Made by a program: the position numbers and the translations under genes. A stretch of DNA of 64,000 nt, from the NCBI GenBank assembly GCA_022564295.1, contig JADFLR010000004.1, positions 11,840 to 75,839 of the forward strand. Direction: 5' to 3'. Every line of letters starts with the position of its first letter. Position 1 is the stretch's first letter. The DNA comes from Bacteroidota bacterium (GTDB lineage Bacteria; Bacteroidota; Ignavibacteria; Ignavibacteriales; Ignavibacteriaceae). Below the pieces are notes generated by a model. It saw only the letters and a list, made by a program, of their open reading frames with translations, had not been told where the DNA came from and ran no database searches. Positions 6,518-58,859 of the stretch are shown piece by piece.

Positions 6518-6559
6518 TGAAGGACATTAGAAAACTATTAAAATCTTTACAGATGATAG

Positions 6560-6575
6560 TTAGTACTTGTACTAA
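6560..6575. promoter_or_regulatory. palindrome TTAGTACTTGTACTAA, copy 2 of 3 (putative operator)
   Basis: Same half-sites as the 5365 and 8615 copies, with the central AA changed to TT. It lies between the response-regulator stop (6599) and the 6032..6517 start. Confidence 0.45.
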
Positions 6576-6598
6576 TGAAATTAAGTGATTGAAAAGTT

Positions 6599-42015: not shown

Positions 42016-43473
42016 TTAAATCCCTTCGTACTTTTTAATCAATTTACTTCTTAAAATTTTCTCAAGTTCATTTCTCGGAAGTTCTTTCTCGACAATTAAT
42101 TTTTTAGGAATTTTGAATCCCGCCAGATCATCCTTAAGAAATTCCTGAAGGTCATTAAGCTCTATGGTGCTCTTTTCATCTTTTAGTACAATTGCAGCAG
42201 CAACAATCTCACCCCAATCATCATCCTTTAACGGAAAAACAGCAGCATCAACAATTTCAGGATGTTCAATTAATCTTTTCTCAACTTCGTTGGGGTTTAC
42301 ATTTTCACCACCCGTTACAATTAAATCGGTTCTTCTTGCTTCTATGAACAAATATCCATTGGCATCTACAAATCCTATATCACCCGTAAAATAAAAACCG
42401 TCTTCAATTTTCTTTTCCGTCTCATCCTCGTCATTATAATAACCCTTCATCACAGCAGCCGAAGAAACTGCAATCTCGCCAACTTCTCCCCACGGAATTT
42501 GAAACCTGTTTTCATTTACAATAATTATTTGATTCGGTTTAACTGCTGTACCCACTGATCTTGGTTTATCATAAATTTCCTCATCGGAAATTGAACTAAC
42601 GAAAGAAGAAGTTTCAGTCGAACCATAAACTTTTGTTATATTCCAGCCATCGCTAATCGCATCAAACACCAAACGTTGATCAATAAACCCTCCGCCTAAT
42701 AATGTAATTCTTAATTCATCATTCGGTAGTATGTCAGCTTCAAGCATTCTTTTCAATTGAGTCGGTACAAACGAACAAAGCGTCGGGTTAAAGTTTTTCA
42801 TCACTTCTGCAAGATCTTGAATTTGTAAAGATTCGGGAATAATGATTGAAGTACCAAAAAGTAGCGCCCTCGAGATTATTGAAAAACCTCCAATGTGGTA
42901 AAAAGGTAAACTTGCAAGCCATCTGTCTTCTTTGTTGTGATGAATAATTTTATCACCGATTCTTGCACTTTGCAATAAATTGTTGAATGATAATTCAACT
43001 CCTTTAGAATTGCCTGAAGCACCCGAAGTGAAAATAATTACGGCAGTATCTTCCGGATTTAATTCTTCACCAGGTTCAATATCATCCTGTTCCAGCTCTT
43101 CATCGAAAGGATAAGAAAATACTTTCGCATCAAATGATGGACCAATAGATTTTATCATTCTATTTTGCAAAACAACTTTGCAATCGGTTGTAATAATTTG
43201 TTCTTCAATTTCATTGTTAGTTAAACGTGGATTGATCAATACAGGCAGGGCTTTAATTTGCCATAATGCCAACAGGTTAATGATAAAATCAGCATCACTA
43301 TTTCCTATTATTGCAATGTTGTCTTTATCACTTAAACCCATAGCCGATAGGATACCGGCAGTTTTTAAAACTTTTTTTTGGAACTCTTCATAATTCAGTT
43401 GGTCTGAATTTGAATTGATTGCCGGATAACTCAATTCCTGAGTTTTTAAAAGGAAAGCATTTATTGAAAACAT
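42016..43473 (-). CDS. menE: o-succinylbenzoate-CoA ligase
   Basis: AMP-binding motifs FTSGASGNSKGV and YGSTE. It sits directly after menC in the men gene string. Confidence 0.85.
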   Translation of the reverse strand: MFSINAFLLKTQELSYPAINSNSDQLNYEEFQKKVLKTAGILSAMGLSDKDNIAIIGNSDADFIINLLALWQIKALPVLINPRLTNNEIEEQIITTDCKVVLQNRMIKSIGPSFDAKVFSYPFDEELEQDDIEPGEELNPEDTAVIIFTSGASGNSKGVELSFNNLLQSARIGDKIIHHNKEDRWLASLPFYHIGGFSIISRALLFGTSIIIPESLQIQDLAEVMKNFNPTLCSFVPTQLKRMLEADILPNDELRITLLGGGFIDQRLVFDAISDGWNITKVYGSTETSSFVSSISDEEIYDKPRSVGTAVKPNQIIIVNENRFQIPWGEVGEIAVSSAAVMKGYYNDEDETEKKIEDGFYFTGDIGFVDANGYLFIEARRTDLIVTGGENVNPNEVEKRLIEHPEIVDAAVFPLKDDDWGEIVAAAIVLKDEKSTIELNDLQEFLKDDLAGFKIPKKLIVEKELPRNELEKILRSKLIKKYEGI

Positions 43474-43477: not shown

Positions 43478-44506
43478 TTAGCTTAAAATTATTTTACCTG
43501 ATTTAATTGGAAAAGGATCATTTGTTATCGTATTTAAAAAGAGATCTGCCACACCAAGTCCGTGAGCCACATTTTCTTCAACAGAAGCAGCGGCAATAAC
43601 AGCATTTGTTTTTCCTATGGCAGATTCAAAGGATGATGTAATTACCGGGGTAATATTTTCTGCCATTGCTAGTTTTATTATATCCAATGTTGGCAGCAGT
43701 CCCCCGATCATCATTGGTTTTAAAATTAAATAAGAAACCGCTCCACTTTTAATAAATTCCTTCGCTTCTTTTACTGAACGGATCGATTCATCCGGTGCGA
43801 GCGGGATGTTGGTTCTCTTTTTCAAGTCTATGTAATCGCTCAAATTAGTAACAGGTTGCTCGGCATATTCAATATCGAATTGTTCCAGTTCCATTAAGTT
43901 TATAATTGCTTCATCTAAATTCCAATTGCCGTTGGAATCTATTCGCAGCTTAATATTATCTCCAAAGGTTTTCCGTATTAATTTAATAACTGAAAAATCT
44001 TCTTCAAAATTACTTCTTCCTATTTTTAATTTTATTGTGGTAAATCCTTTTTCAATAAGGGTTCTTGCGGTTTTCACGGATTCATCAACATTCAAAAACC
44101 CGATTGCAGCATTTACAGTTACCCGCTTTTTTAATTTTAAGTTTAGAAGTTTATCAATTGTAGTTTTATTTTTATTGCAAATTATATTAATGATTGCCTG
44201 TTCCAATCCGTGTCTTAGAGCCGGCATTTTTTTATAATTTACGAGGCAGTTGTTTATACTTTTTTCAATCTCGGTTTCATCAATTATTACCTTAAGTTTA
44301 AAATCTGACAACACATTTTCAACATCTTCAATACTTTCCGAACCAAACTCAGGGAAAGGGCAGCAGTCTCCTATTCCTTCAAAACCATCCGGATCGTCTA
44401 ATCTTAAAATAAATCCTCTTCTCTCTTTAATTTCAGTTCGTGCTGTGAAGAACGACTTCTTCAGTTTTAATGTGTATGGTGAGTATGTTAATTGCAGGTC
44501 TTTCAT
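43478..44506 (-). CDS. menC: o-succinylbenzoate synthase (enolase superfamily)
   Basis: 342 aa with KLKIG, RIDSNGNW, EYAEQP and APDES metal/acid-base motifs in enolase-superfamily order. The men context supports the call. Confidence 0.8.
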   Translation of the reverse strand: MKDLQLTYSPYTLKLKKSFFTARTEIKERRGFILRLDDPDGFEGIGDCCPFPEFGSESIEDVENVLSDFKLKVIIDETEIEKSINNCLVNYKKMPALRHGLEQAIINIICNKNKTTIDKLLNLKLKKRVTVNAAIGFLNVDESVKTARTLIEKGFTTIKLKIGRSNFEEDFSVIKLIRKTFGDNIKLRIDSNGNWNLDEAIINLMELEQFDIEYAEQPVTNLSDYIDLKKRTNIPLAPDESIRSVKEAKEFIKSGAVSYLILKPMMIGGLLPTLDIIKLAMAENITPVITSSFESAIGKTNAVIAAASVEENVAHGLGVADLFLNTITNDPFPIKSGKIILS

Positions 44507-44519
44507 TTGTTTATAACTC

Positions 44520-44619
44520 TATTATCTGCCGTGGCAGCGTATGAATGCATGACTGCATGCCTGCCCGGCTTTTGACGGAGTTGCATGTAATTATTATGGC
44601 AGCTGCCGTATAGATAATA
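44520..44619. repeat. GC-rich inverted-repeat element in the menA-menC spacer
   Basis: TATTATCT (44520-27) pairs with AGATAATA (44612-19), and GGCAGC (44533-38) pairs with GCTGCC (44602-07). They enclose about 63 nt rich in GCATGC-type palindromes. Confidence 0.5.
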
Positions 44620-44684
44620 ATTGACAATCTTTATCAATCATTTTTCATTCAGCATTCAATCATCCAACCATTCAACCATACGTT

Positions 44685-45584
44685 TTATAATATCAAACCA
44701 AGAGAAAAGAGTAAACCGAACAGTGCCGCATACTTAGCTGATAATTCCAATGTTTTGTTCAGCCGCTCTCCTTCAAAGGATCGAAGCGTTTTAATAAGAA
44801 TAACAGCAATTGGTAACGACAATAGCGGTAAAAATATCCAGTAAGTATAATCATATTTAAAATAGATAATAAATAAAATTAAGTAAGAAATGGCAATTGA
44901 ATTAACAAACTGAAAACGTGTAAACTTTTTCCCCAGCTTAACTGCCAATGTATACTTATCGGCTTCTCTATCTTCTTCGATGTCACGGTAATTATTAACA
45001 ACTAAAATGTTCGTGGTTAAAGCACCGACAGGAACAGCGATTAAAAATGAGAGTAAGCTAAATTCGTGTAAATGAAGATAATATGTTCCCGTTGTTCCTA
45101 CAATTCCAAAAAAAGCAAAGACAAAAACATCTCCCAAACCATTATAAGCTAAAGGGTATGGTCCGGCTGTATATGCGAGTCCTGCCAGGATGGAAATTAC
45201 ACCTATGATTAATATTACAACTCCTGCAGAATAAACAAGATACAATCCCAATAAAAAAGCTAAGCCAAAAACAGTAACTATACCCATTTTCATTTCGGAT
45301 GTAGAAATTAATCCGGATACAAGAACTCTTCGTGGACCAATTCTGTCCTTCTTGTCTGTGCCTTTTAAATAATCATAAAGGTCGTTGGTAAAGTTGGTTC
45401 CCACCTGAATAAGAATTGAGCATAACAAAGCGATTAGAGAAAGGATAAGAGTGAATTTATTGTGTGAAACAGCCAACGCAGAGCCAACCATTACAGGAAC
45501 CACTGCGGCTAACAGAGTTCTTGGTCTGCTTGCAAGTAACCAGCTTTCAATCTTTGAAGGTTTTTCAACCGCGGAAGAATTCAT
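44685..45584 (-). CDS. menA: 1,4-dihydroxy-2-naphthoate polyprenyltransferase
   Basis: UbiA-family motifs NDLYDYLKGTD and NNYRDIEEDR. The protein is a polytopic membrane protein of 299 aa. Confidence 0.9.
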   Translation of the reverse strand: MNSSAVEKPSKIESWLLASRPRTLLAAVVPVMVGSALAVSHNKFTLILSLIALLCSILIQVGTNFTNDLYDYLKGTDKKDRIGPRRVLVSGLISTSEMKMGIVTVFGLAFLLGLYLVYSAGVVILIIGVISILAGLAYTAGPYPLAYNGLGDVFVFAFFGIVGTTGTYYLHLHEFSLLSFLIAVPVGALTTNILVVNNYRDIEEDREADKYTLAVKLGKKFTRFQFVNSIAISYLILFIIYFKYDYTYWIFLPLLSLPIAVILIKTLRSFEGERLNKTLELSAKYAALFGLLFSLGLIL

Positions 45585-45590: not shown

Positions 45591-46436
45591 TTACGGCAGT
45601 TTCGGGAATTTTTTAAAATCGGGTTTTCTTTTTTCAAGATACGCTTTTTTGCCTTCCTGTGCTTCCTCACTCATATAATAAAGAAGAGTTGCATTTCCTG
45701 CAAGTTCCTGAATACCTGCTTGTCCATCGAGTTCTGCGTTGAAGGCAGATTTTAAAACTCTTATTGCCATCGGGCTGTGCTGAAGAATTTGATTTGCCCA
45801 CTCAATTCCTTCCTGTTCAAGTTTATCAACGGGAACAACTATATTTACGAGTCCCATTGCTTCTGCCTCATTGGCATTGTACTCTTTGCAAAGATACCAG
45901 ATCTCTCGTGCCTTTTTCTGTCCGACAATTCTTGCAAGGTAGCTTGAACCGAAGCCGGCATCAAAACTTCCAACCTTAGGTCCGGTCTGTCCGAAGACAG
46001 CATTATCTGCAGCGATAGTTAAATCGCAAACAACTTGTAAAACATTACCGCCACCGATTGCATAACCGGCTACCAAAGCTATAACAACTTTAGGTATGCT
46101 TCTGATAAGTTTTTGAAGATCGAGAACGTTAAGACGCGGAACACCATCTTTACCAACATATCCTTTATCACCTCTTATTCTCTGATCGCCACCGGAACAA
46201 AAAGCATATTTCCCATCCTTCGCCGGACCATAACCAGTCAGCAAAATAACACCGATATCTTGATCTTCCCTTGCATCCGAAAAAGCATTATACATCTCTA
46301 TTATTGTTTCGGGACGAAAAGCATTTCTCACTTCCGGTCGGTTAATTGTTACCTTCGCAATACCATCCATCTTCTCGTAGATGATATCCTGATATCCGCC
46401 TGAGGCGGATTTTACTTTTTGCCAGTTAAAATTCAT
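45591..46436 (-). CDS. menB: 1,4-dihydroxy-2-naphthoyl-CoA synthase
   Basis: 281 aa of the crotonase fold. It has [19 protein letters not shown] and [10 protein letters not shown], and the characteristic C-terminal [14 protein letters not shown]. Confidence 0.95.
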
Positions 46437-46611
46437 TTGAAACCTTGCAAATTTTTAGATATTGTCAGATTAAAAATATTGAAAAAGACGGAAATTAAGA
46501 ATGAAAATAAATTTTGATTGGACGAATCAGTAAATATATTATTACTATCATTTATTGTGTAAATTTGAACAATTATTTAAGTTTACGAGAAATTTAACGT
46601 TAATATAATTC

Positions 46612-49600
46612 ATGATCAAATTAAATAATCTCACACTCAAAAAATCCATAAACAAAGCTTACCTGAAAGTAAAACCTGTAAGGGAGGATTTTGAAAAGTT
46701 TAAAGAAGAACTCAAAAAGCTTCTTACTCTAATAAATGATAAAGAATCTGAAGAACACAATAAAAACTTTGTTCGCGATTTTCTCATTAATACTTTTTAT
46801 TCAGATAAATATGTAAACACCAGTGGAAGGACAGACCTTGCAATCCACTTGGATAGAACGAGCAAAAGTTTAATAGGAGTTATAATAGAAGCAAAAAGTC
46901 CTGCTAATAAATATGATATGATCTTTGAAGATAACCTCAACTGTAAAGCGATGCACGAGGTTATTCTTTACTACCTGAGAGAAAGAATAGACAAAAGAAA
47001 CGATGAAATAAAGAATATTATTATCACCAATTCGTATAAATGGATTATCTTCAATGCTGACCAGTTTGAAAAACAATTTTATAAAAGCAAACTAAAAAAT
47101 GAATATCTAAAGTGGCGGGATGATAAAAAAGTAAGTAAGCTTAATGAGCATTTTTATAATGAGATTGTTAAAAAATTTTTAGACGAAAGCAATGCTGATA
47201 TTGAAGCAATATCTTTTGATCTAAGGGATTTAGAAAAAAACCTTAATAAAAAAGATGAAAAGCATCTCATACCGCTTTTCAAAAAATTATCACCACCAGA
47301 GCTTCTTAAAGAACCATTTGCAAACGACAGCAACACATTAAATAAGCAATTCTATTCTGAACTTCTTCATATAATTGGACTTGAAGAGTATAAAGAGGGG
47401 AGTAAAAAGAAGATTGGAAGAAAAGATGAAAACAAGAGAAATAGTGGTTCTTTACTTGAAAACACAATTAGAATGCTCAATGCGAAAAATGTTATAAAAA
47501 ATTTTGATGATATATCCGTTTATGGCAGCACGGAGGAGGAACAACTTTATAACATCGCTCTTGAGTTGAATATAGTCTGGATAAACAGAATTATGTTTCT
47601 CAAGCTTCTTGAAGCTCAGCTTGTAAATTATCATAGCGGAGATAAGAATTACAAATTTTTAGAACCAAAAGTTATCAGCCAGTACGATGATCTTTTTGAG
47701 CTTTTTCACGAAGTACTTGCCGTAAAGACTGCAGATAGAAATCCGGATTTAATTGGCAAGTTCAATAAAATACCATATCTCAACAGTTCATTATTTGAAT
47801 TAAGCGAAATAGAAAAGAAAACAATTGATATATCCAGTCTTAAAGACAAATTTAATCTTCCCTTTTATAAAAGCACAGTTTTCAGTAAGGATATAAAATC
47901 TAAAAGTGAACTGCCCGCACTTGAATATCTTCTTCTGTTCCTCGATGCTTATGATTTTGCTTCCGAAGGTGGCGAAGAAATTCTTGAAGAACGGAAAACT
48001 ATAATGAATGCTTCAGTTCTCGGTCTTATCTTTGAAAAGATCAATGGTTATAAGGAAGGATCTTTCTACACTCCAGGTTTTATAACTATGTATATGGCAC
48101 GTGAGACTTTAAGGCGTGCAGTCGTTCAGAAATTTAATGAAACAAAAAGTACTACGCATAAAGATTATGAGGAACTGAAAAAGAACATAAATACTTCTTC
48201 TTCCGGAAGGGAAGAAGCAAACAAAATTATAAATGAACTTAAGATATGCGATCCCGCAGTTGGTTCCGGACATTTCCTTGTCTCCTGCCTGAATGAAATA
48301 ATTGCGATTAAAGCCGATCTTAAAGTTTTGAATTACAGGGACGGCAGACAGGTGCAGAATTTTAGTTTTGAAATTGAGAATGATGAATTAGTAATTAACA
48401 ATGAAGAAACTGATGAACTGTTTGGTTATCATTTAAATCCTTCCGACAAACCAATACCAACTTTACATGAATTGCAGGAAGCATTATTTCATGAGAAGGA
48501 AACAGTTATTGAAAACTGTCTCTTTGGTGTCGATATAAATCCAAACTCTGTAAATATCTGCCGTTTAAGACTGTGGATTGAGCTGTTGAAGAACTCCTAC
48601 TACACCAGTGAAAGTAATTATACTGAGCTGGAAACACTTCCTAATATTGACATAAACATTAAACAGGGAAATTCGCTTATAAGCAGGTTTGATGTAAGGC
48701 AGGATATTTTTACACACGCTGACAAACAGACACTCGATGTTTATAAGATGAATGTTACTCTTTACAAAAATGTACAGGATAGAGACAAAAGAAGAGAATT
48801 AAAAAACTCAATTGATAAAACGAAAGAAAGATTTAGAGGTATTGCTGTCGATCCATTATATAAAGTGAGAGAGCAGAGGGAAAAGCTAACAGAGCAGTTG
48901 CATAAGTTGAATGTTGATAATCCTCTTTTTAAGCACGAAGATTCTGCTAAGAAAGAAGCTGAGGTTGAAAAGAAGAGAAGTAACCTGTCAGCGAAAATAA
49001 GCAAGCTCTCTAAAGAAATAGAAGATAAAGCAGAAGAGTACAGGACAATATATTCAAACTCATTTGAATGGCGGTTTGAATTTCCCGAAGTGCTTGATGA
49101 CGATGGCAACTTTGCTGGATTTGATATAGTAATAGGGAATCCGCCGTATATTCCGTTAGAGGGTTTTAGTGAAGTTTACCGGGAATTTTTCAAGAAAAAA
49201 TATTCACAGTTTAAGAGAAAATTTGAAACTTCTGTTCTTTTCATAGTTGAAGGATTTGGAATATTAAAACCACAAGGAATATTAACATATATTGCACCCG
49301 TTACTTGGCAAACAGGTGAAAACTATCAAATTTTCAGGAAGTATTTGTTTGAACAAAAAGGAATAATAAAAATAATTAATCTTCCATTTAATATCTTTGC
49401 TGATGCCTATGTTGATACAGCCATTTATATATTTTCTAATGATTTAACTGATTCTTATAGCATATTTAGTTTTAACAAAAAAGCAAAGGTTGATACTTTG
49501 GAAGGAATAAATTTTATCGAAATAGAAAAAACATTACTTTCTCTACCCAAACACAAAATTATTTTAAATCCTTTTATCTATGAAATCCTTAATAGACTTG

Positions 49601-50232
49601 ACACTTCGAAAATTATAACTATAGGTGAAATTACAATATCAACACAAGGGTTAGCAGGTAGTAATTTCGAGTCTGAATCTAAAGTTAAAACTTGGCATTT
49701 CCCATTTTTAAGTAAAGGTAATGTCTATAATTATTCCTTTCAGGTTGAAGAAATTTTTTATACGAGCTTAGAAGATAAGCCTTCTTTAAAAGTATTTTAC
49801 GAATCTAAACCTAAGTTGTTAATCAGACGTATTGTAAATAGGCAAGACAGATTATCTGTTGGCTATACTGAAGCTAGAATGGTTTTCAAAAAAGATATTA
49901 ATCCATTTATTCCTGTGAATGATGATTTCCATCCGAAATATTTACTTGCTTTAATGGCAAGCAAATTTATTTCCTTTATATATCTGAATATATCATCAAT
50001 TGCGACAAAAGATGATTTTAGACAGACAACATTAGCTGAATTACGAGAGATACCTATCCCGATTATTCCACTTAAAGAGCAAAAGTCTTTTATTCAAAAA
50101 GCAGATAAAATACTAGAGATGAAGGTTAAGGACCTGGGTGTTAATACAAGTAAAATAGAAAAAGAAATCGATGAAATGGTTTATAAGCTTTATGGATTGA
50201 CGGAGGAGGAAATTAAAATTTTTGAGGATTAA
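46612..50232 (+). CDS. single-polypeptide type IIG restriction-modification enzyme (Eco57I-like: PD-ExK nuclease + N6-adenine methyltransferase + TaqI-like TRD)
   Basis: 1206 aa. The N-terminal TDLAIH...VIIEAKS is a PD-(D/E)XK motif. SAM motif I is ICDPAVGSGHFLV. FEWRFEFPEV is followed by motif IV, VIGNPPYIP. The C-terminal roughly 350 aa is specificity-domain-like. Confidence 0.8.
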   Translation: MIKLNNLTLKKSINKAYLKVKPVREDFEKFKEELKKLLTLINDKESEEHNKNFVRDFLINTFYSDKYVNTSGRTDLAIHLDRTSKSLIGVIIEAKSPANKYDMIFEDNLNCKAMHEVILYYLRERIDKRNDEIKNIIITNSYKWIIFNADQFEKQFYKSKLKNEYLKWRDDKKVSKLNEHFYNEIVKKFLDESNADIEAISFDLRDLEKNLNKKDEKHLIPLFKKLSPPELLKEPFANDSNTLNKQFYSELLHIIGLEEYKEGSKKKIGRKDENKRNSGSLLENTIRMLNAKNVIKNFDDISVYGSTEEEQLYNIALELNIVWINRIMFLKLLEAQLVNYHSGDKNYKFLEPKVISQYDDLFELFHEVLAVKTADRNPDLIGKFNKIPYLNSSLFELSEIEKKTIDISSLKDKFNLPFYKSTVFSKDIKSKSELPALEYLLLFLDAYDFASEGGEEILEERKTIMNASVLGLIFEKINGYKEGSFYTPGFITMYMARETLRRAVVQKFNETKSTTHKDYEELKKNINTSSSGREEANKIINELKICDPAVGSGHFLVSCLNEIIAIKADLKVLNYRDGRQVQNFSFEIENDELVINNEETDELFGYHLNPSDKPIPTLHELQEALFHEKETVIENCLFGVDINPNSVNICRLRLWIELLKNSYYTSESNYTELETLPNIDINIKQGNSLISRFDVRQDIFTHADKQTLDVYKMNVTLYKNVQDRDKRRELKNSIDKTKERFRGIAVDPLYKVREQREKLTEQLHKLNVDNPLFKHEDSAKKEAEVEKKRSNLSAKISKLSKEIEDKAEEYRTIYSNSFEWRFEFPEVLDDDGNFAGFDIVIGNPPYIPLEGFSEVYREFFKKKYSQFKRKFETSVLFIVEGFGILKPQGILTYIAPVTWQTGENYQIFRKYLFEQKGIIKIINLPFNIFADAYVDTAIYIFSNDLTDSYSIFSFNKKAKVDTLEGINFIEIEKTLLSLPKHKIILNPFIYEILNRLDTSKIITIGEITISTQGLAGSNFESESKVKTWHFPFLSKGNVYNYSFQVEEIFYTSLEDKPSLKVFYESKPKLLIRRIVNRQDRLSVGYTEARMVFKKDINPFIPVNDDFHPKYLLALMASKFISFIYLNISSIATKDDFRQTTLAELREIPIPIIPLKEQKSFIQKADKILEMKVKDLGVNTSKIEKEIDEMVYKLYGLTEEEIKIFED

Positions 50233-50322
50233 ATAAATTGATTAATGAAAAAGAAATGACAGGAAATGTTACTATTGTTTATAATTTATCGCCTGAACTT
50301 AAAAGAAGGCTAATGTAGAAAA

Positions 50323-52590
50323 TTGAAAAGCTTAAACCTTAATAAAATATTAAATCCAATTCTGAATTTTTTGCTGACCTTACTGAGATTGATACTGTTA
50401 TTTTTGAAAAAACTTTTCAATGTCCTTAATATTATAATTTCGACTCTTTTTAATGTATTAATTTCATTAGTAATTATTTCTTTCTCTTTATATCTTTATT
50501 CTAATGATTTACAAGATATACTAGCAAGTTCTTCACTTTTACCAACAATCCTGATTGCTATTGGTAGCACTTTGATTACCATATTAATTCTAGCGATATC
50601 AATTACAATTATCCCTATTCAACGCGCTATTGAATCTTTTTCAAAAAGCATTTCTTACTTATACAGAAATGATAAACTCAATATTTTAATTTTCATACTA
50701 ATTTCACTTTTCGCTTTGTTTGCTTTTATTTCATCAATTGATGGAATTTTCTTTTCCATTAAAGCGTCAATTTTATTTCCAATTAATTTAGCTACGGTAG
50801 GAATTACTTTAGACCTTTTACGTTGGCATCAAAGAAGAGTCAGTAAACTTTTAGAACCAGACGAAGCTATTAAGAAACTCAAAATAAAAGTAATTAATTT
50901 TATAAAAAGGAATCAATTCATAATATCACTTTTGGCAAGGCTAAGTGTATTGATTTCTTTTAAGAAAAGAGATAAAGAAAATTATTTGTATGATGAAGAA
51001 AGAAAATTATATCTAACAAGTTCTAGTCATTATAACCATATTAATAAAAAATTAGGTGAGCTGACAGAAATCTCAACCAAAGCACTAGCCAAAAATGAAA
51101 TTGAAACTGTTGAGATTGTAGTGAATGCTGTATCATCTATTATAATCACATATATAAACTGTCGTAAAAATAATTTAATTTTTTACACATCTAAAGATGC
51201 TTTTTTGGTTACTCAAAGCGATGCAGATGAGGTTTTTAATAAGGCTTATGAGGGTCTATTCAATATTGCATTAAGGTCTCACAAAGAATCGCACGAATAT
51301 CCGAGTATTTATTGTCTCAAGGCATTAGCCAAGATAGTAGAAAATATTTGTATTCTTCCTCGTTCTTCAAAAATAAATTTGCTGTTTTCTCCCATTTACT
51401 ATTTTAACAAAATATTGAATGATGCGCAGGAAAAAAATCTTGATGAAGTTGTATTTCAGGGATGTAATGTGATTGAGGAAATATCAAAAAACATATATTC
51501 TCAAAAACATATTATTGAAGGAGAGTATACATTTAATGAATTGTTTCAAAAACTGATAACGAATTATATTATTACTAACAAACTGGAACTTGGTAATAAA
51601 GTATTGGAGCAAATGATAAATCAAATTTTTCTATTGATTCCCAATTATCCATATTCAATAACCCACTCTCTAAAAAATGTTATAAAAACAATTGAAGAAA
51701 TATTCCCCGTAGCTTTGGCAACTAATAATATTTCAAAACATAATTTAATGTATTTGCACTTCTCAATTCCCTATGATATAACAAAAGAAAAATCATTCTT
51801 CCATTTGGTACAAAAGGCAACAATATTTAATAGAGTAGAAAAAGAATTGATAAATCCATATCAGACTTTTTTAGGTATAAATCATGAAATTTGTATGCAT
51901 TACCGAAAGTTGGCTGATAACAATGATTTAGGGGAAAGCGTATTTATGTGGCATATCAGTACTTCTATTAGTTATATAGTTAAAATCCATTTCCATTTAT
52001 TATCAAAACCAATTACAGAAATAAATAGTTATACTGATAAACTTATAAATCAAATATCTTGGTATTTGTCTTTTTTTTGGTGTTCCTTTTCTCATTCATC
52101 AAAAATAAAAATGTCTTATGCCGAAAAAGCTTTTGAAGTTGTAACTCAAATTGGTTTGACTTGCTATAACACAGAATTTGTAGACAAATATCCTATTTCA
52201 AGGAATGAAATAATAGAGTCTTGTATTAGTGATTTAATTTCAATGATAAATTCATTTACAAAAGTTGGAGAAGATAATAATCAATATAACCTTTCAGACC
52301 TAATATTGTATTTGTGGTATATTCGATTAGCAGCAAAAAATAACGTGGAAGATTTTAGAATTAAGAAGATTGATAAAAAAATCAAAGAATTAGATATACT
52401 CAAAACAGAAGCTATAGAAGATATTAAGGAAGCATTAGAATTACGTTATGAACAGATGATGGAAATGCTACTAGAAGAAGATTCAAGATTTTCTTTAGAT
52501 GATGAGAAAGCTATAGGTCTATTAAGAAAATTAAATAAGGATAAAAAGTTTTATGAAGAAAATTCAATTTTAAATATATTTATAGGGTGA
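50323..52590 (+). CDS. large hypothetical protein: N-terminal polytopic membrane region (about 5 TM) + roughly 570-aa helical cytoplasmic region
   Basis: 755-aa uninterrupted ORF. The only start-like codon after the upstream stop (50311-13) is TTG at 50323. TM stretches include VLISLVIISFSLYLY, LPTILIAIGSTLITILILAISITIIP, ILIFILISLFALFAFI and ILFPINLATVGITL. I recognise no motif. Confidence 0.6.
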   Translation: MKSLNLNKILNPILNFLLTLLRLILLFLKKLFNVLNIIISTLFNVLISLVIISFSLYLYSNDLQDILASSSLLPTILIAIGSTLITILILAISITIIPIQRAIESFSKSISYLYRNDKLNILIFILISLFALFAFISSIDGIFFSIKASILFPINLATVGITLDLLRWHQRRVSKLLEPDEAIKKLKIKVINFIKRNQFIISLLARLSVLISFKKRDKENYLYDEERKLYLTSSSHYNHINKKLGELTEISTKALAKNEIETVEIVVNAVSSIIITYINCRKNNLIFYTSKDAFLVTQSDADEVFNKAYEGLFNIALRSHKESHEYPSIYCLKALAKIVENICILPRSSKINLLFSPIYYFNKILNDAQEKNLDEVVFQGCNVIEEISKNIYSQKHIIEGEYTFNELFQKLITNYIITNKLELGNKVLEQMINQIFLLIPNYPYSITHSLKNVIKTIEEIFPVALATNNISKHNLMYLHFSIPYDITKEKSFFHLVQKATIFNRVEKELINPYQTFLGINHEICMHYRKLADNNDLGESVFMWHISTSISYIVKIHFHLLSKPITEINSYTDKLINQISWYLSFFWCSFSHSSKIKMSYAEKAFEVVTQIGLTCYNTEFVDKYPISRNEIIESCISDLISMINSFTKVGEDNNQYNLSDLILYLWYIRLAAKNNVEDFRIKKIDKKIKELDILKTEAIEDIKEALELRYEQMMEMLLEEDSRFSLDDEKAIGLLRKLNKDKKFYEENSILNIFIG

Positions 52591-52697
52591 AAGTAAAAGA
52601 GAATTAATTGAAGTAGCGAAAGTTGTCTGAAGAGATTTACAAAAGAATTTTTCAAAAGCCGAAAAGAATTTCTATTACAATAAGCAAAGAAGTAAAT

Positions 52698-52806
52698 TAG
52701 TTTGTAAGTTTGCTTGGGGAACTCATCCCCCGGCCCCTTCTCCCCGCAAGCGGGATCCTCGATTTATAAAGAGAAGGGGAGTTTAGGAGTCCCTCTCTTT
52801 TTAAGA
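52698..52806. repeat. direct-repeat copy 1 (GTTTGTAAGTTTGC...GGGAACTCATCCCCCGGCCCCTTCTC...AGAGAAGGGGAG...TCCCTCTCTT)
   Basis: Collinear with 54150..54258. This copy carries an extra CCCGCAAGCGGGATCCTCGATTTA insertion. Confidence 0.75.
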
Positions 52807-53050
52807 CCTGCCTGCCATTAAGCAGGGTTAGCATTAGTGAATGGCTTTATGAATTATCCCGCGTTTTATTGTGTTATTTGAGGCAATTATTTAAGTTTGG
52901 GAAAAATGAAAGTGAGGTATTTATAAAACTACTTGCTATACGATTAGATGCCAGCCGGATTGATGGTAATTAATTACACTTTTACAATAAAAAAATAGAA
53001 AAAATGGTTATTAAGCTATTTAGATTGATGGAAGAGAAAATAAATATTTG

Positions 53051-53965
53051 ATGGATTCCTCATATATAAAAAGACTAGTTTTTATTAAGTATCTCCATAA
53101 AATTGGAGAAGAGCAAAGTAAATTGCCTGAACCCCTTTCAAGCATATCTATTTTAACCTTTCATAATGCAATTGAATTATTTCTACAATTAACTGTTGAG
53201 TATTTGAATTGTGGACAGTATTATATAGAGTTTATGGAATATTGGGATATTATTAGTAAAAAGCTTGGAAAAGAACTTGCATATAAAGATTCAATGAGAA
53301 GATTAAATAAAGCAAGGGTTGCATTTAAGCATCATGGGAATTTGCCATCAAATTTCAACATTGAAGAATTTCGAATAGCAACACAAAATTTTTTTATAGA
53401 GAGTTGTCAATTAATATTTACAATTGATTTTGAAGATGTTACTTTAATAGATCTCGTACCCTCGGAAGAAATTCAAGAATTGTTAAAAACAGCTAATAAT
53501 AAAATACATACTGATAAATATGAAGCATTGAAGAATATTTCCATTTCTTTTGCTAAAGTATTGACAGAGTATGAAGCTAAATTATATCCTAAATATGGAA
53601 ATATTAATAATGAATTTTCTAAGGATTATCATTCTTATCATTACTATTATAGTAGTATCGACGCAACACCTTTTCAGAAAATTGAAAATAAGTTAGATGC
53701 AATCACGGATTCAATTCTCATACTTAGTTTGGGTCTTAATTATAATAAATATCTTAAATTCAAAACTATTAGCTTTTATGTATTTAGAACCACTGGAGGT
53801 GGGTATCATGTAACCCCACAAAAAGAAATGGAAGATTCTATAGATGGTAGCATAAATGACAAATATTCAATTGATGATATAAAATTTTGCTTAGATTTTG
53901 TAATTGAAACAAGTATTGTCATTTATTCAATAGATTTTAATTTTTCTTCTACACATTTAGCATAA
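53051..53965 (+). CDS. hypothetical helical protein with HEPN-like Rx4H motif
   Basis: About 304 aa from the ATG at 53051. RRLNKARVAFKHHGNLPS contains R-x4-H (RVAFKH), preceded by helices such as TFHNAIELFLQLTVEYL. The HEPN assignment is pattern-level only. Confidence 0.55.
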   Translation: MDSSYIKRLVFIKYLHKIGEEQSKLPEPLSSISILTFHNAIELFLQLTVEYLNCGQYYIEFMEYWDIISKKLGKELAYKDSMRRLNKARVAFKHHGNLPSNFNIEEFRIATQNFFIESCQLIFTIDFEDVTLIDLVPSEEIQELLKTANNKIHTDKYEALKNISISFAKVLTEYEAKLYPKYGNINNEFSKDYHSYHYYYSSIDATPFQKIENKLDAITDSILILSLGLNYNKYLKFKTISFYVFRTTGGGYHVTPQKEMEDSIDGSINDKYSIDDIKFCLDFVIETSIVIYSIDFNFSSTHLA

Positions 53966-54149
53966 ATAGAAGTAGAGTAGAAATAAAATGTTTTGGAAAC
54001 AATAAAAAATAGAATCTATCCTTTTAATCAGAATCCCTTCAAAAACTGATTCATCGACTTAACAAACCTCCCCGTTTCTTCAAGGTGCGTATTGTGCCCC
54101 GTATATGGAATTATTTAATAAATTGCATAACAGCGTTATAATAAAGAAA

Positions 54150-54258
54150 TAGGTTTGTAAGTTTGCATAGGGAACTCATCCTCCGGCCCCTTCTCTTACA
54201 AAGAGAAGGGGAGTTTTAAAGTCCCTCTCTTCTTAAGAGAGGGACTCAGGGTGAGTTA
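54150..54258. repeat. direct-repeat copy 2 with two strong hairpins
   Basis: CCCCTTCTCT (54187-96) pairs with AGAGAAGGGG (54202-11). AGTCCCTCTCT (54220-30) pairs with AGAGAGGGACT (54236-46). The element is followed by CAGGGTGAGTT. Confidence 0.8.
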
Positions 54259-54292
54259 ATTTAACATTGCAACAATCAATAAATAAATACTA

Positions 54293-54679
54293 ATGAGTTT
54301 AAACCGTAAAAGAGAATTAGTTGCAGTAGCAAAAGTTGTTTGCAGGGATTTAAGAAAGAACGCCACAGAGACTGAAAAGATTTTCTGGGAGACAATTCGG
54401 AATAAGAAGCTTCTTGACAAAAAATTCTACCGGCAATATCCTTTATTTTATGATATCACGGGAAAGGAATCATTTTTTGTTGCTGATTTTTATTGTCACC
54501 AGGAAAAGTTGGTTGTTGAATTAGATGGTGTTATACATAAATATAGATTAAAAGAGGACAAAGAAAGAGAAAAAATTCTTAATTATATGGGATTGAATAT
54601 TATCCGCTTTCGGAATGATGAAGTATTGAACGATTTAGACGATGTACTATCAAAATTAAAAGAAATACTTAAACATTAA
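54293..54679 (+). CDS. DUF559 endonuclease-domain protein (Vsr/PD-ExK-like)
   Basis: 128 aa. It contains LRKNATETEKIFWETIRNKKL...FYRQYPL...VADFYCHQEKLVVELDG..H......D..R...L...G..IIRFRNDEV, the canonical DUF559 layout. Confidence 0.85.
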   Translation: MSLNRKRELVAVAKVVCRDLRKNATETEKIFWETIRNKKLLDKKFYRQYPLFYDITGKESFFVADFYCHQEKLVVELDGVIHKYRLKEDKEREKILNYMGLNIIRFRNDEVLNDLDDVLSKLKEILKH

Positions 54680-54741
54680 TCAGTTTATTAAAACGAAACA
54701 CAACTGTTCAAATTAAATTGATAATATTTTAACTTCTCATT

Positions 54742-54785
54742 CCCACTTCTCTTTGTAAGAGAAGGGGGTTAGGGGGTTGAGTTCA
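54742..54785. repeat. third hairpin copy downstream of DUF559
   Basis: CCCACTTCTCTTTGTAAGAGAAGGGGG is followed by TTAGGGGGTTGAGTT. This parallels the hairpin plus GGGTGAGTT arrangement upstream of the gene. Confidence 0.7.
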
Positions 54786-54872
54786 ATGTTTTAGTATTAA
54801 ATAATAAAGTAGTCTGGACATAAGTGAATTGAATAGAAATAGTTTTGATAATAAATCAAAAAATTAAAATTG

Positions 54873-55694
54873 TCAGTAATTCTTTAGAAATTCATTAACA
54901 ACTTTCACAAATTTCATCGGTTCTTCGATATGAGTATTGTGTCCTGCATTTTTAATTATTTTATGCTTAGCATTTGGAAATTTTTTCTTTAACATAGAGT
55001 TTATTTTTGTAAACTTTGTATCAAGCTCACCTGTTATCAGTAGTACAGGGCAATTGATTTGATTAAGTTTGTTGCCAAAATAACCCATTCTCCCTGTTCC
55101 AAATTCTCGCAATGAATTTGCCAATCCGATTTTTGAATTAAGTGCTTTCTTTTTCCGTATTTTCTTCAACTTCTCGTTCGAAAATCTTCTTTGAGTATTA
55201 AAAATTTCTTTATTCATCCATAACTCAACGAATTCTTCAATATTGTGTGATTCGATGTAATCAGCTAATTCTTCATCAATTTTAATTCTTTCACTTCGGA
55301 TTTTTTCACTTTCAATTCCTGCAGTTGTGCCTTCTAATATTAATCCTCTAATTTTATTTGGATGATTGATAGCAAAACTCAACGCTGCTCTCCCACCCAT
55401 TGAATAACCGAAAATTATTGCTTGTTTGATGGAGAGATTGTTTAAAATATCATTAATCTGTTTTGAAAGTGCTTGCGGACTGTATTTATCAATATTAACC
55501 GGAGAATCACTTTTACCGTGTCCAACCAAATCAATTCCAATATAGTTAAAATTGGGATTAAGTAAACGGTGAATTTCCCGCCAATCATCCAACGAACCTG
55601 TAAATCCGTGGAGCATTAAAATTGTGTCTCTTTTTTGCTCGAAAGAATTGAAACACTCAAAATTAATATTCACTGAATCAGAGATGATCCTCAT
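54873..55694 (-). CDS. menH: 2-succinyl-6-hydroxy-2,4-cyclohexadiene-1-carboxylate synthase (alpha/beta hydrolase)
   Basis: 273 aa with HGFTGS, the nucleophile elbow GYSMGG and a C-terminal GHNTHIEEP. It overlaps the menD stop by 4 nt. Confidence 0.8.
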   Translation of the reverse strand: MRIISDSVNINFECFNSFEQKRDTILMLHGFTGSLDDWREIHRLLNPNFNYIGIDLVGHGKSDSPVNIDKYSPQALSKQINDILNNLSIKQAIIFGYSMGGRAALSFAINHPNKIRGLILEGTTAGIESEKIRSERIKIDEELADYIESHNIEEFVELWMNKEIFNTQRRFSNEKLKKIRKKKALNSKIGLANSLREFGTGRMGYFGNKLNQINCPVLLITGELDTKFTKINSMLKKKFPNAKHKIIKNAGHNTHIEEPMKFVKVVNEFLKNY

Positions 55695-57475
55695 TTAAAT
55701 GAAAAATCCCTCTCAATATTTTTAATAACTTCAGCCCAATACTTTTTACGCATTTGTTTGGAGGAAATTGAATCGGTTAAAATTTCGAGAACTGCAAATG
55801 ATTTTTTTTGAAGAGAATTGATGAGTTTAATTTTTAATTCTTTTTCGTTTTTTATTAGATGATGTTCAAGTCCGAATGACTTAACAATTGGAGCAATATT
55901 AAGATTATGTGGTGTTTTAAAATACGTTTTAAATTTATTGTTTGAAGAAACCGGAAGCATTTCGAAAATACCTCCCCCATTATTGTTTATTAAAATTACA
56001 ACAAGAGGAATAGAATATTTTTTTGCGGGAAGGAGAGCATTTAAATCATGTATAAAAGAAAGATCGCCTGTAATTAAAATTGTTGGTTTTTCTATTGATG
56101 TAATTCCTAAAGCAGTGGTAGTTACACCGTCTATTCCACTTGCACCGCGGTTAAAAAACAGTTTCAGGTTTTTATTGGTCTTCCCAACAAAGTTATCAAA
56201 ATCGTGAATTGGCAAGCTGTTGCCTACCATTATTTTCGTGTTAGAAGGTAAGATTGAAATTAATTCAGAGAAAACTTTTGGTTCAATCTCAAGATTTGAT
56301 TTTTTTAATAATAATGTTTTTATCTCTTTGGTTAATAACTCCACTTTTTTAAAGTTCTTTAACCAATTATGACTTCTTTTAAATTTGTTTTCTATTAAAA
56401 CCCGAATGAGATTTTCACAAAAACTTATAGGATTAAATTTTAACACTTTGGATGTTTTTGATGGATCGAATAAATCTCCGTAATCATTAATGATAAATCT
56501 AAGCGGTTTCGATTGTTCAAGATATTTCTCAAGAATTGCAGAAGTAAAAGTTCTTCCGAACTGTAATACAATTTCAGGTTTGTTTTCCGTTATAAAGTTA
56601 TTCGAACGTAAAAATGCATCGTAATTAGTGCAAATAAATTCATCTGATTTTAAGTTTCTAAATCTCAAATGTGATACACCATCTGCCAAAACCGGATAGC
56701 CCGTAACCTTTGAAAGCTGCTTTATATTAGAAATAAATTTTGGATCATATTCTTTAGGACCAACAATTATCAGTCCTTTCTCCTTTCCGATTATGTTTTC
56801 TGCAATTTTATTAATTCGTTTTGTTTCTCTTTTGGATAAATTTCCATTCCCGTTAATGTTTGCTACCGGAGTGATGCAATTCTTTATTACCATCAAAATT
56901 TCATCCCCAACTTCATCTGTGAATGAATCTGGTTCAAGCGGTTTACGGAAAGGGAAATTTAAATGAACAGGACCTTTATCTCTTATAATACTTGTTTCAA
57001 ATGCTCGTACAGCAATCTTCTGTAAATTGATTATTCGTTTAACAGAAAGCTGCGGTAATCCCAAATATTTAAACCATCGTATATGATTTCTATATAAATT
57101 CCATTGGTTAATTGTTTGATTGGCTCCAGTGTTTAATAATTCAGGCGGTCTATCAGCAGTGCAAATTATTAACGGAATCCTCTGTTGATATGATTCAATA
57201 ATTGCAGGATAAAGTTCTGCCGTCGCAGTTCCAGAGGTTGTTACAATTGCAACAGGAAGACCGCTTGCCTTTGCCAATCCTATGGCGAAAAAGCCGGACA
57301 CTCTTTCATCGATATGCACAAAACATTTAATCTTTTTTTGTTCTGCAAAAGCAAGTGTAAGCGGAGTGCTTCTTGAACCGGGTGAAATGCAGGCAAAACG
57401 AACTCCTAATGTACAAAGTTGGTTTACAAATGCTTTCGCCCAAATAAAATTTTTATTAACCTTTGTTTTGTTCAT
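55691..57475 (-). CDS. menD: SEPHCHC synthase (ThDP-dependent)
   Basis: 594 aa with an N-terminal CISPGSRSTPL and the ThDP motif GDLSFIHDLN...NNGGGIF. Confidence 0.9.
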   Translation of the reverse strand: MNKTKVNKNFIWAKAFVNQLCTLGVRFACISPGSRSTPLTLAFAEQKKIKCFVHIDERVSGFFAIGLAKASGLPVAIVTTSGTATAELYPAIIESYQQRIPLIICTADRPPELLNTGANQTINQWNLYRNHIRWFKYLGLPQLSVKRIINLQKIAVRAFETSIIRDKGPVHLNFPFRKPLEPDSFTDEVGDEILMVIKNCITPVANINGNGNLSKRETKRINKIAENIIGKEKGLIIVGPKEYDPKFISNIKQLSKVTGYPVLADGVSHLRFRNLKSDEFICTNYDAFLRSNNFITENKPEIVLQFGRTFTSAILEKYLEQSKPLRFIINDYGDLFDPSKTSKVLKFNPISFCENLIRVLIENKFKRSHNWLKNFKKVELLTKEIKTLLLKKSNLEIEPKVFSELISILPSNTKIMVGNSLPIHDFDNFVGKTNKNLKLFFNRGASGIDGVTTTALGITSIEKPTILITGDLSFIHDLNALLPAKKYSIPLVVILINNNGGGIFEMLPVSSNNKFKTYFKTPHNLNIAPIVKSFGLEHHLIKNEKELKIKLINSLQKKSFAVLEILTDSISSKQMRKKYWAEVIKNIERDFSFK

Positions 57476-58859
57476 GGAATAAATTTAGGATTGTGTTGAA
57501 TTTCATTTCAGTTTCAACGTACTCTTCTTCGGGTATAGATTCTTCGACTATCCCGGCTCCGGCATAAAGATGAAGTTCACCCTTTTTGTAAAGCGCAGAT
57601 CGGATAGCAACAGCAAACTCGCAATTAAAATTAATATCTATCCAACCAATCAATCCTGAAAATAATCCTCTGTCAAATTTTTCTATTTCATTTATTGTAT
57701 CACGAGCAATTTGTTTCGGTAATCCACAAACAGCTGGAGTTGGAAACATAGAATCGATTAAACTTAAAACATTTCTATCTTCATTTAGTTTAGCGTTTAT
57801 TTTAGTATAAAGATGTTGAACATTTTTTAGCTTTTTTATCTGAGGGGATGTATCAACTCTTATATCATGAGCATACTCAGATATTGCTTCGCCTATAAAA
57901 TCTATTACATACTTATGTTCTTTAATATTTTTTTTATTGAGTAATTCTGATTCAATATCAGTACTGTCTCCTGATGCTGAACCTGCAAGTGCATCAATTT
58001 CGATATTGTTATCACGTACACTTAAAAACTTTTCAGGCGATGCACCAAAAAAAGCAGCTTCATTCGATTTGACCATGAACAGGTAACAGTTGGAAAATGT
58101 TGTTTCTAATTTGCGAAACATTTGAGACCAATCTATACCATCTTTAACTAATAATTCTATTCTGCGCGATAAGACTATCTTCTTTAAATCGCGGTCGAAT
58201 TTTTTCTTTGCTTTTGTAACTATTGTATTCCATAGTGCTTCGTTATTATTAATTTCGCCGTTGCTATCGTAAATAATATTTTTCTTAACTGTCCCTTCAT
58301 TATCTAAATTAAAAATGGCTGAAACAGATTGGGTAAAGTTAACTGCAATATTTTCATTGTTGATTTTTGAATTCGCCTGAAAATTATATATAAGAAAAGT
58401 TTCATCTTCTTTTTGAAGGATGATAATTTGCGGAACAAAGAAATGGATCGTTCTAAAATTATTCCATTCTTCGGAAGACTTTTCAGAATCAAATTTTATT
58501 CCACCCGAAATAATGGGAATATTATTAATATTATAATCCGACCAATTGCTGACTAATTGTGATTTTAATTTTGAAATATCATGTTCAAGTGAAAGGATAT
58601 CCTTTTTATTTGATGATAATTCAATCAGGCAATTAAGAGCTACGAATGAATAGCCCTCATCAAATTTTTCGAAGAAGAGAAATTCATCATAATTATCGTT
58701 TATTAAATTTAGTTTTGCAATGAGATTGATTTTATTAACAGGTAATACGAAACTCACCACCGAGCCATCTAATATATTTTGTTCATTCTTGCTTATGAAA
58801 GAATATAAATCATTAGCTGCCTGTGATGCATCGGTAAATTTTGTTTTGGCTGTATTCAA
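57456..58859 (-). CDS. menF: isochorismate synthase
   Basis: 467 aa with a chorismate-binding C-terminal region: PTPAVCG, RGLFSGLIGW, AVAIRSAL and YAGAGIVEESIPEEEYVETE. Confidence 0.9.
   Translation of the reverse strand: MNTAKTKFTDASQAANDLYSFISKNEQNILDGSVVSFVLPVNKINLIAKLNLINDNYDEFLFFEKFDEGYSFVALNCLIELSSNKKDILSLEHDISKLKSQLVSNWSDYNINNIPIISGGIKFDSEKSSEEWNNFRTIHFFVPQIIILQKEDETFLIYNFQANSKINNENIAVNFTQSVSAIFNLDNEGTVKKNIIYDSNGEINNNEALWNTIVTKAKKKFDRDLKKIVLSRRIELLVKDGIDWSQMFRKLETTFSNCYLFMVKSNEAAFFGASPEKFLSVRDNNIEIDALAGSASGDSTDIESELLNKKNIKEHKYVIDFIGEAISEYAHDIRVDTSPQIKKLKNVQHLYTKINAKLNEDRNVLSLIDSMFPTPAVCGLPKQIARDTINEIEKFDRGLFSGLIGWIDINFNCEFAVAIRSALYKKGELHLYAGAGIVEESIPEEEYVETEMKFNTILNLFHEQNKG

Follow-up and report, generated by a model that had tools for sequence, protein, structure and literature searches.

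A probable composite defence island, variable among strains, between menH and menB in an Ignavibacteriaceae menaquinone operon

Background

Variable cargo lodged between conserved core genes is the mark of the defence and integration hotspots described in enterobacteria, Pseudomonas and Vibrio. Other insertions enter a gene and make good its end, as the element e14 does in icd of Escherichia coli, to which it supplies a replacement gene end. Free-standing homing endonuclease genes, in turn, sit between conserved genes, the intronless homing of T-even phages being a case in point; nucleases of the DUF559/Vsr-like kind are not known as a homing family. Here, I describe a block at positions 46437-54872 of a 64-kb stretch of contig JADFLR010000004.1 (the window, from a metagenome-assembled genome of the Ignavibacteriaceae), which separates the two halves of a menaquinone (men) biosynthesis operon and is probably a strain-variable composite defence island, put together in at least two building steps at the menH-menB junction of an ancestrally contiguous operon.

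With the described hotspots this junction shares its conserved flanks, a polymorphism that extends to near-identical strains, differing cargo, an AT-rich composition and the presence of a restriction-modification (RM) enzyme together with uncharacterised genes; it departs from them in lying inside an operon, between two genes of one single pathway, instead of beside a tRNA gene or amid unrelated core genes, in having no mobility gene, and in carrying a cassette made of hairpins and a DUF559 gene along with a duplicated gene end. Taken as a whole, it is an ordinary variable hotspot for defence genes whose location is unusual. As in e14-type elements, an intact gene end and a decaying ~95-nt duplicate, here of menH, flank the insertion, yet there is neither an integrase nor a defined attachment core, and only ~0.75 kb, encoding DUF559, lies between the repeats. 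The cassette recalls the free-standing homing endonucleases in being a small lone nuclease gene, present or absent at one and the same site and in one comparison more conserved than its flanks, but differs from them in its structured hairpins and in the length of the target duplication.

Insertion into a contiguous operon

The seven men genes of the window, their junctions, the four plus-strand genes standing between the two halves and the hairpins interspersed among them (Table 1) were all recovered by open reading frame (ORF) mapping and profile searches as the initial annotation had placed them. The men genes exceed the NCBIfam equivalog/subfamily cut-offs without exception (7/7), Pfam being concordant, and their reading frames are intact in the distal half (menE, menC, menA, menB) as well as in the proximal one (menH, menD, menF). 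Most junctions are tight: menF and menD overlap by 20 nt and menD and menH by 4 nt, while gaps of 6 and 4 nt separate menB from menA and menC from menE, the 178-nt gap between menA and menC being the exception.

For comparison, genome and metagenome contigs were retrieved (loci L001-L110). The MenB of the window is 84-88% identical to that of uncultured Ignavibacteriaceae genomes, and searches of these loci with the window proteins (tblastn) reveal a conserved order, omp-rsgA-menF-menD-menH-menB-menA-(menC)-menE followed by a convergent thioesterase gene, and the contiguous run menF-D-H-B-A-(C)-E was confirmed by tblastn maps in L007, L009-L022, L027, L097, L100 and L101. In 15 more distant Ignavibacteriales genomes (L007, L009-L011, L013-L022, L027) menH and menB are at most ~55 nt apart. 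Much closer relatives were recovered by a metagenome scan with MenH, and in six of them (L096, L097, L100, L101, L102, L107) the two genes are separated by a spacer of 58-70 nt, that is, by an empty site. One of them, L096, is 98.3% identical to the window across 2489 nt of menD-menH and then continues with a 58-nt spacer and menB; it presents a clean empty site in what is probably the same species as the window. Between the two, identity falls abruptly 45 nt before the menH stop and returns at the menB start codon.

Since menH and menB adjoin each other in distant and close relatives alike, the 98.3%-identical L096 included, insertion into an ancestrally contiguous operon, rather than loss in the relatives, is the parsimonious reading. 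The empty-site comparison, with its 15 distant and six close relatives, thus lends support to the initial proposal that a defence-type island had landed inside a conserved men operon; what the relatives present are 21 adjacent-gene alleles, not a set of unrelated conserved genes parting menH from menB. The opposite scenario, in which the four genes are ancestral and were deleted in relatives, the operon being split first and healed later, is most improbable. Nothing speaks for it directly, save that L006, L056 and L012 (the latter with an insert of 0.6 kb) have genes between menH and menB as well; it would have to accommodate adjacent genes across the whole order and in a near-identical strain, inserted genes that differ among genomes and, in the window, the duplication of the menH end and a composition rich in AT.

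As for composition, the impression that the block is richer in AT than the men genes was borne out by windowed guanine-cytosine (GC) content and tetranucleotide deviation. GC is 29.5% in the block against 34.9% in the rest of the window; no other stretch of 8.4 kb is as AT-rich, every other one having at least 32.05% GC, and the tetranucleotide distance is 0.026-0.0285, compared with 0.0158 +/- 0.0026 outside. The contrast is uneven and mainly due to two of the genes, here called p755 and p305 (26.5% GC), the RM gene (31.7%) being level with menH-D-F (31.6%). Profile searches found no integrase, transposase or tyrosine/serine recombinase domain in any ORF of the island, no tRNA gene was found in the window, and an Rfam search of island and window gave no match.

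Between the same conserved flanks, occupancy varies: against the six empty close relatives stand the differing inserts of L098, L099, L106, L110 and the window. The alleles of L098 and L110 hold the DUF559 cassette and a relic of the menH end, and nothing else. That of L106 has the DUF559 cassette followed by a gene for a ParE-family toxin (31.2 bits, cut-off 23), which occupies, between relic and menB, the very slot taken in the window by ~7.5 kb of cargo. In L099, the cassette is replaced by an IS200-like Y1 transposase gene, between the intact menH end and the relic. In L103, lastly, homology to menH gives out at residue 247, within that same breakpoint region, and the genes beyond it are unrelated. 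A natural allele series for the growth of an island is therefore available at one single site, from empty through DUF559 only, DUF559 with a toxin and a transposase to the full RM island. The transposase gene of L099 (4917-5575) encodes 187 aa with an HFH motif and has near-identical flanking hairpins, TGTCACGG...CCGTGACA.

Table 1. Coordinates of the men genes and of the features found between and beside them in the window
Feature	Position	Strand	Evidence or remark
menE	42016-43473	-	ORF map; NCBIfam 334.1 (cut-off 330.15)
menC	43478-44506	-	ORF map; NCBIfam 155.2 (cut-off 130.55)
menA	44685-45584	-	ORF map; NCBIfam 322.2 (cut-off 264)
menB	45591-46436	-	ORF map; NCBIfam 481.6 (cut-off 380)
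Native-type menB upstream spacer, candidate menBACE promoter region	46437-46505	-	Upper limit approximate; holds TTTTCAATATTTTTA
Left end of cargo, upstream region of RM gene	46506-46611	+	Holds 43-nt repeat copy 1 (46551-46593)
RM gene, 1206 aa	46612-50232	+	ORF map
p755, 755 aa	50323-52590	+	ORF map
DUF559 remnant, codons ~5-31, 81 nt	52593-52673	+	Two nt after p755 stop
Twin-hairpin copy A', degenerate, extra nested hairpins	52687-52830	+	86-88% identical to 54140-54238
43-nt repeat copy 2	52865-52907	+	143 nt upstream of p305 start
p305 ORF, 305 aa	53048-53965	+	ORF map
menH relic, degenerate copy of last ~95 nt of menH	54025-54119	-	Smith-Waterman, blastn, alignments
Twin-hairpin element A	54140-54262	+	Perfect 11- and 12-bp hairpins inside an outer stem, ~30 nt upstream of DUF559 gene
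DUF559 (Vsr-like PD-(D/E)XK) endonuclease gene, 128 aa	54293-54679	+	ORF map; Pfam PF04480, E 4.9e-29
Hairpin B	54728-54781		Near-copy of element A hairpin 1; between convergent DUF559 and menH
menH	54873-55694	-	ORF map; NCBIfam 265.9 (cut-off 208.55)
menD	55691-57475	-	ORF map; NCBIfam 413.3 (cut-off 244.2)
menF (isochorismate synthase)	57456-58859	-	ORF map; NCBIfam 304 (cut-off 224.75)

A cassette nested beside the cargo

The island consists of two nested parts. Next to menH lies a cassette of ~0.75 kb (54120-54872) comprising twin-hairpin element A, the DUF559 gene and hairpin B, and enclosed by duplicate menH ends, the functional one (54873-54967) and the relic, which is its direct repeat. 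The relic aligns with the menH 3' ends of relatives with Smith-Waterman scores of 46-53, as opposed to 18 +/- 2.7 for shuffled sequences (0/2000 reach them). Element A has a fold energy of -50.7 kcal/mol (z = -4.9) and is conserved in L098, L106 and L110, while a hairpin pattern search returned matches only in L098 and L106 among the loci; perfect GC-rich hairpins with stems of at least 8 bp are found four times in the 64 kb, twice at 54187-54246. Hairpin B contains 25 nt that are 96% complementary to 54187-54211 (fold z = -4.0). The match of the nuclease to PF04480 reaches 100.8 bits (cut-off 20.6) over profile positions 5-108 of 109, and its orthologues at the same site are 80% (L098), 87% (L106) and 83% (L110) identical.

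Because it is bracketed by the duplicated menH 3' end and, in L098 and L110, occupies the site with no cargo beside it, the cassette is best regarded as an element separate from the cargo and more widespread than it. The earlier picture of one 8.4-kb island is accordingly kept as far as the insertion is concerned and abandoned for a single event, since in those two loci the DUF559/hairpin cassette occurs by itself.

The cargo (~46506-53985, ~7.5 kb) lies between the relic and menB and bears scars of its own. Its DUF559 remnant is 78% identical to 54306-54386 (tblastn E 4.7e-6) and 80-84% identical to the DUF559 genes of L098, L106 and L110; it is followed by the degenerate hairpin element A'. 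Copy 1 of the 43-nt repeat precedes the RM gene by 19 nt, and the two copies align with a Smith-Waterman score of 49, shuffles giving 21.9 +/- 3.2 (0/2000 reach it). Given that the DUF559 remnant, A' and the 43-nt repeat are all duplicates inside the cargo, they indicate that at least one further recombination probably took place between segments bearing DUF559 and hairpins.

On these grounds, a probable course of events may be outlined. In a first step, a cassette of ~0.55-0.75 kb (twin hairpin, DUF559, hairpin) would have entered the menH 3' end, leaving menH intact together with a second, decaying copy of its final ~95 nt. In a second step, ~7.5 kb of cargo would have accreted between this duplicate and the menB spacer, bringing in the RM gene, p755, the HEPN-like p305 and a truncated second DUF559 gene accompanied by its hairpin element. 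Presence and absence among strains would then be due to recombination in the conserved men flanks, the usual mode of turnover of defence hotspots. Along the same line, the menB spacer of the window is closer to the spacers of more distant genera than to that of L096; as the identity to L096 breaks at the menH end and resumes at the menB start, the whole segment, made of menH end, island and spacer, may well have been imported through recombination between flanking men sequences.

Three origins would suit the duplication of the menH end: a decayed integrative element, homology-facilitated illegitimate recombination or a site-specific DUF559 cassette. As regards the first, one or more integrase-driven elements with an attachment site in the last ~95 nt of menH may have provided a surrogate gene end, accreted in tandem and later lost their integrases. 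In the window, L098, L106, L110 and L099 alike, the inserts lie between directly repeated menH 3' ends, homology to menH in L103 stops at that breakpoint region, and p305 homologues are found elsewhere beside tyrosine integrases and a resolvase. I consider such an origin unlikely, for an integrase is present in none of the occupied alleles examined (0/5), the Y1 transposase of L099 being the only recombinase, and the boundaries of the duplication differ between DUF559-type and transposase-type alleles. Alignment also hints at a second, partial spacer copy at ~53985-54025, which would suit tandem accretion; statistically, however, neither the second nor the third of the proposed repeat copies is supported.

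Two further repeats were considered and set aside. A third relic of the menH end at ~46490-46540 is not significant (p from 0.06 to 0.5, a range that includes the test for homology of the left spacer). The 8-nt direct repeat ATTGTCAG (46461-46468 and 54869-54876) was rejected as a target-site duplication, for native-type sequence, the conserved 15-mer included, runs past it to at least 46485, and an 8-mer match between AT-rich spacers is expected by chance.

Another possibility is that the DUF559 gene and its twin hairpin form an active selfish element of the homing type, aimed at the menH 3' end or the menH-menB spacer, which would have served as a landing pad for defence cargo brought in through recombination between DUF559/hairpin copies, 52593-52830 being the scar of such an event. 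The cassette occupies the same site in four lineages (window, L098, L106, L110), and in L110 the segment corresponding to 54156-54690 is 83-88% identical, with sharp boundaries, compared with 57-82% (mean ~73%) in the adjoining menH and 70-76% in the men genes. A DUF559 gene with a similarly built twin hairpin also follows the gene of a p755 homologue in the unrelated context of L086, a DUF559 remnant and a hairpin copy persist inside the cargo, and close homologues in the family number 209, the majority of them on short contigs. The excess conservation is nonetheless confined to the L110 comparison, the L098 cassette (81.5%) being slightly less conserved than its flanks (84-88%); functional constraint could also account for it, a target duplication of ~95 nt is atypical of homing, and scans of viral contigs for DUF559, as for p755, yielded no relatives. 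Active homing is thus rather unlikely. It is also rather unlikely, although worth stating, that the ~0.55 kb of twin hairpin and DUF559 constitute an unrecognised site-specific mobile cassette for the menH-menB junction of Ignavibacteriaceae, in which a Vsr-like 'homing' nuclease would be paired with a structured element of DNA or RNA, and a landing pad that recruits defence genes into a housekeeping operon via recombination between its copies. Either way, the cassette offers a lead on the biology of the abundant small DUF559 proteins, and a literature search combining DUF559 with defence retrieved nothing relevant.

In L086, the twin hairpin (6645-6727) consists of an outer stem ACACCCCTT...AAGGGGTGTG enclosing two TTCCCCTCT...AGAGGGGAA hairpins, upstream of a distant DUF559 (32% identical); its architecture is that of element A of the window, and it has no Rfam match.

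The RM enzyme and its uncharacterised neighbours

Of the products of the composite island, only the RM enzyme belongs to an established type, p755 and p305 being candidates; if the block is called a defence island, it is because the RM gene is clear and the other two appear tied to defence by the contexts of their homologues.

The RM protein matches the PADLOC model REase_MTase_IIG (PDLC03612, E 6.7e-224, residues 5-977) and the Pfam domains DUF7149, DUF7814, Eco57I and TaqI_C. One polypeptide thereby holds a nuclease, a helical spacer, a gamma-class N6-adenine methyltransferase and a TaqI-like specificity domain, with D75...E93-A-K95 as nuclease-type motif and DPAVGSGHF and NPPY as methyltransferase motifs, as read from the sequence. 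With type IIG enzymes (MmeI/Eco57I-like) it shares the one-chain build, the PD-(D/E)XK-like N-terminus, the gamma-class motifs and TaqI_C, while it differs from PglX of the bacteriophage exclusion (BREX) system and from DrmMI of the defence island system associated with restriction-modification (DISARM) in its low PglX score (86.3 bits at best, cut-off 500) and in having no system partners, none of PglZ, BrxC, BrxL and DrmA/B/C being present in 46.4-54.9 kb. Scoring far below the PglX cut-offs and without BREX or DISARM partner genes, it appears to be a stand-alone predicted type IIG enzyme outside both systems, which would methylate the host DNA and cut unmodified incoming DNA. The exact RM protein of the window, as well as its MenH and P0001, had no record in the gene index.

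The product of p755, whose start codon is uncertain (the NCBI record begins 27 codons later), has no Pfam or PADLOC match. Its AlphaFold2 model, with a predicted local distance difference test (pLDDT) score of 81, comprises ~4-5 N-terminal transmembrane helices, DUF2254-like, and a large alpha-helical solenoid, and a fold search returned repeat-protein matches only. Fourteen homologues are detectable; DUF2254 (PF10011) is matched by 9/14 members of the family, and a literature search on this domain found nothing relevant. The neighbourhoods of the homologues are more informative. In L086, a type IIG RM gene (47% identical), a TIR gene, the p755 homologue (67%), a twin hairpin and DUF559 follow each other in this order; in L088, a type III RM system, the homologue and a Fic gene lie beside prophage genes; in Rosettibacter firmus (L091), the homologue is found with DISARM-like, Kiwa, M78/DUF4411 and SIR2 genes; and in L109 it adjoins an HNH gene in a setting without RM. 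p755 may therefore be regarded as a defence-island-associated protein, a candidate for an accessory or stand-alone defence role.

Translation of p305 probably starts at the ATG at 53051, giving 53051-53965 and 304 aa. Neither Pfam nor PADLOC matches the protein, which has 44 homologues, and a Pfam search with 40 family members was likewise negative (0/40); a profile search against PDB sequences returned nothing meaningful, and there is a match to phrog_37995 (E 1e-52). The AlphaFold2 model is all-alpha (pLDDT 87, predicted TM-score 0.81), and R89-x4-H94 is invariant in an alignment of 40 sequences. Among Foldseek matches, HEPN toxins are those of highest probability (0.5-0.75), with target-normalised TM-scores of 0.43-0.59 and E-values above 0.6, hence not significant. 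In three contigs (L092, L093, L095) the homologue is the first gene of an apparent p305-res-mod unit, with only 1-8 nt between its end and the type III res-mod genes, in islands with an integrase, a resolvase or a prokaryotic Argonaute; in a fourth contig it is near a type ISP enzyme. Some type III systems may include the p305 homologues as an accessory part not characterised so far. The protein resembles HEPN RNases (of toxin-antitoxin, abortive-infection and RM-linked kinds) in its R-x4-H motif, its all-alpha N-terminal domain and its RM-linked homologues, and differs from them in having no match to a HEPN hidden Markov model, non-significant fold E-values, an additional C-terminal domain and no MNT or antitoxin partner. 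Judging from model and motif, p305 is a candidate HEPN-like RNase, with a putative accessory or stand-alone role in defence. Two uncharacterised families, DUF2254-like p755 and type III RM-linked p305 with its R-x4-H, are in this way singled out, in a phylum that has been little studied, as candidates for a role in defence.

Expression of the divided operon

On its way to menB, read-through from menFDH would meet 8.4 kb of genes in antisense orientation along with several stable hairpins, which is why menBACE is expected to need a promoter of its own. That this should be a new promoter, located in 46437-46611 and made necessary by the island, as initially proposed, found no support, for the part of the spacer next to menB looks native: the 15-mer TTTTCAATATTTTTA (46471-46485) has exact matches upstream of menB in L008, L009 and L056, all Ignavibacteriaceae, and in L009, where menH and menB adjoin each other without insertion, it lies inside a 50-nt spacer. 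The close relatives with empty sites, moreover, have an AT-rich spacer of 58-70 nt at menH-menB, compared with overlaps or gaps of up to 6 nt at the other men junctions, menA-menC excepted. Since TTTTCAATATTTTTA is shared and the empty-site relatives already possess such a spacer, an internal promoter or regulatory element predating the insertions is the simpler prediction, and it would explain why the junction tolerates them. menFDH would then be transcribed from its own upstream promoter, with read-through to menB blocked by the island, and menBACE from one within the native-type stretch of spacer that has been kept (46437 to ~46505), this promoter being probably older than the insertion. 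A variable defence hotspot can thus occupy the operon of an essential pathway without destroying it, the two halves having probably been uncoupled already by the internal promoter.

The contig of L008 ends 98 nt upstream of menB, just past the conserved 15-mer; a variable insertion could be present there too.

Points that weigh against a defence island, and assembly support

A number of observations weigh against the interpretation of the block as a composite defence island. Defence roles of p755 and p305 are candidate only, both being without PADLOC match. Inserts at the junction in more distant genomes are not of the defence kind, that of L006 consisting of genes for a patatin and for an MFS transporter, the second one broken, and that of L056 of an unannotated 532-aa ORF without Pfam match; because of them, the menH-menB junction may simply be permissive, and not specific to defence. 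On the side of the promoter, the similarity of the window menB spacer to the spacers of the close relatives is not significant (p ~0.06), and a sigma-70 scan is at background, with 53 sites compared with 46.7 expected. The Bacteroidetes-type -7 box TAnnTTTG, which recurs near menB and in each copy of the 43-nt repeat, was dropped, as the regions upstream of genes in the window show no enrichment for it (0.79 versus 0.67 per kb).

Lastly, the interior joins at 48.5-54.0 kb (from the 3' half of the RM gene to p755, p305 and the relic) are found in this assembly alone, with the analogy of L086 in addition. A chimeric join would be conceivable in a metagenome-assembled genome, all the more as other contigs of the same strain come to an end within the RM coding sequence: L001 and L002 at nt 1884, L003-L005 at nt 225-282. 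Such an artefact is nevertheless scarcely credible: the menB-RM junction was assembled independently five times (L001-L005), the DUF559-menH junction and the relic recur in L098, L106 and L110, the reading frame and domain matches of the RM gene run unbroken across the end point of L001 and L002, and the adjacency of p755 and DUF559 is mirrored in L086. The ends of these contigs, at ~48495 and ~46836-46893 of the window, suggest strain heterogeneity or a repeat inside the RM gene.

Other features of the window

The 5' coding region of menB (46394-46410) carries an in-frame, GC-rich palindromic insertion of 12 nt, TCCGCCTCAGGCGG, so that MenB has 281 aa instead of 277. The insertion is also found in L101 and not in L096 or L098, MenB being of 277 aa in L006 and L110; its site was flagged on the plus strand by a terminator scan.

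Short GC-rich palindromes, CTGCCGTGGCAG and GGCAGCTGCC, are likewise present in the spacer between menA and menC (44507-44684). The two genes overlap by 4 nt in L110, and L006, L007, L011 and L019 have no menC match between menA and menE; menA-menC is therefore a second variable junction of the men operon.

The two other strong hairpins of the window, CCACGACCTTTAGGTCGTGG (27428-27447) and CCACGCCATGAATGGCGTGG (28045-28064), are similar to each other, perfect and GC-rich, and lie ~600 nt apart. At the start of the window, GC drops from 42% (1-3000) to 30-31% (3000-7000), and the tetranucleotide distance of positions 1-7000 equals the highest value found anywhere outside the island.

Convergent to menE, a gene at 41595-42002 on the plus strand encodes a thioesterase of the 4HBT_2/YbgC type (135 aa). 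It is a plausible 1,4-dihydroxy-2-naphthoyl-CoA thioesterase for the MenI step, with a weak match to MenI_Staph (27 bits, cut-off 225), and its position beside menE is kept in L006-L012, L017-L019, L056 and L110.

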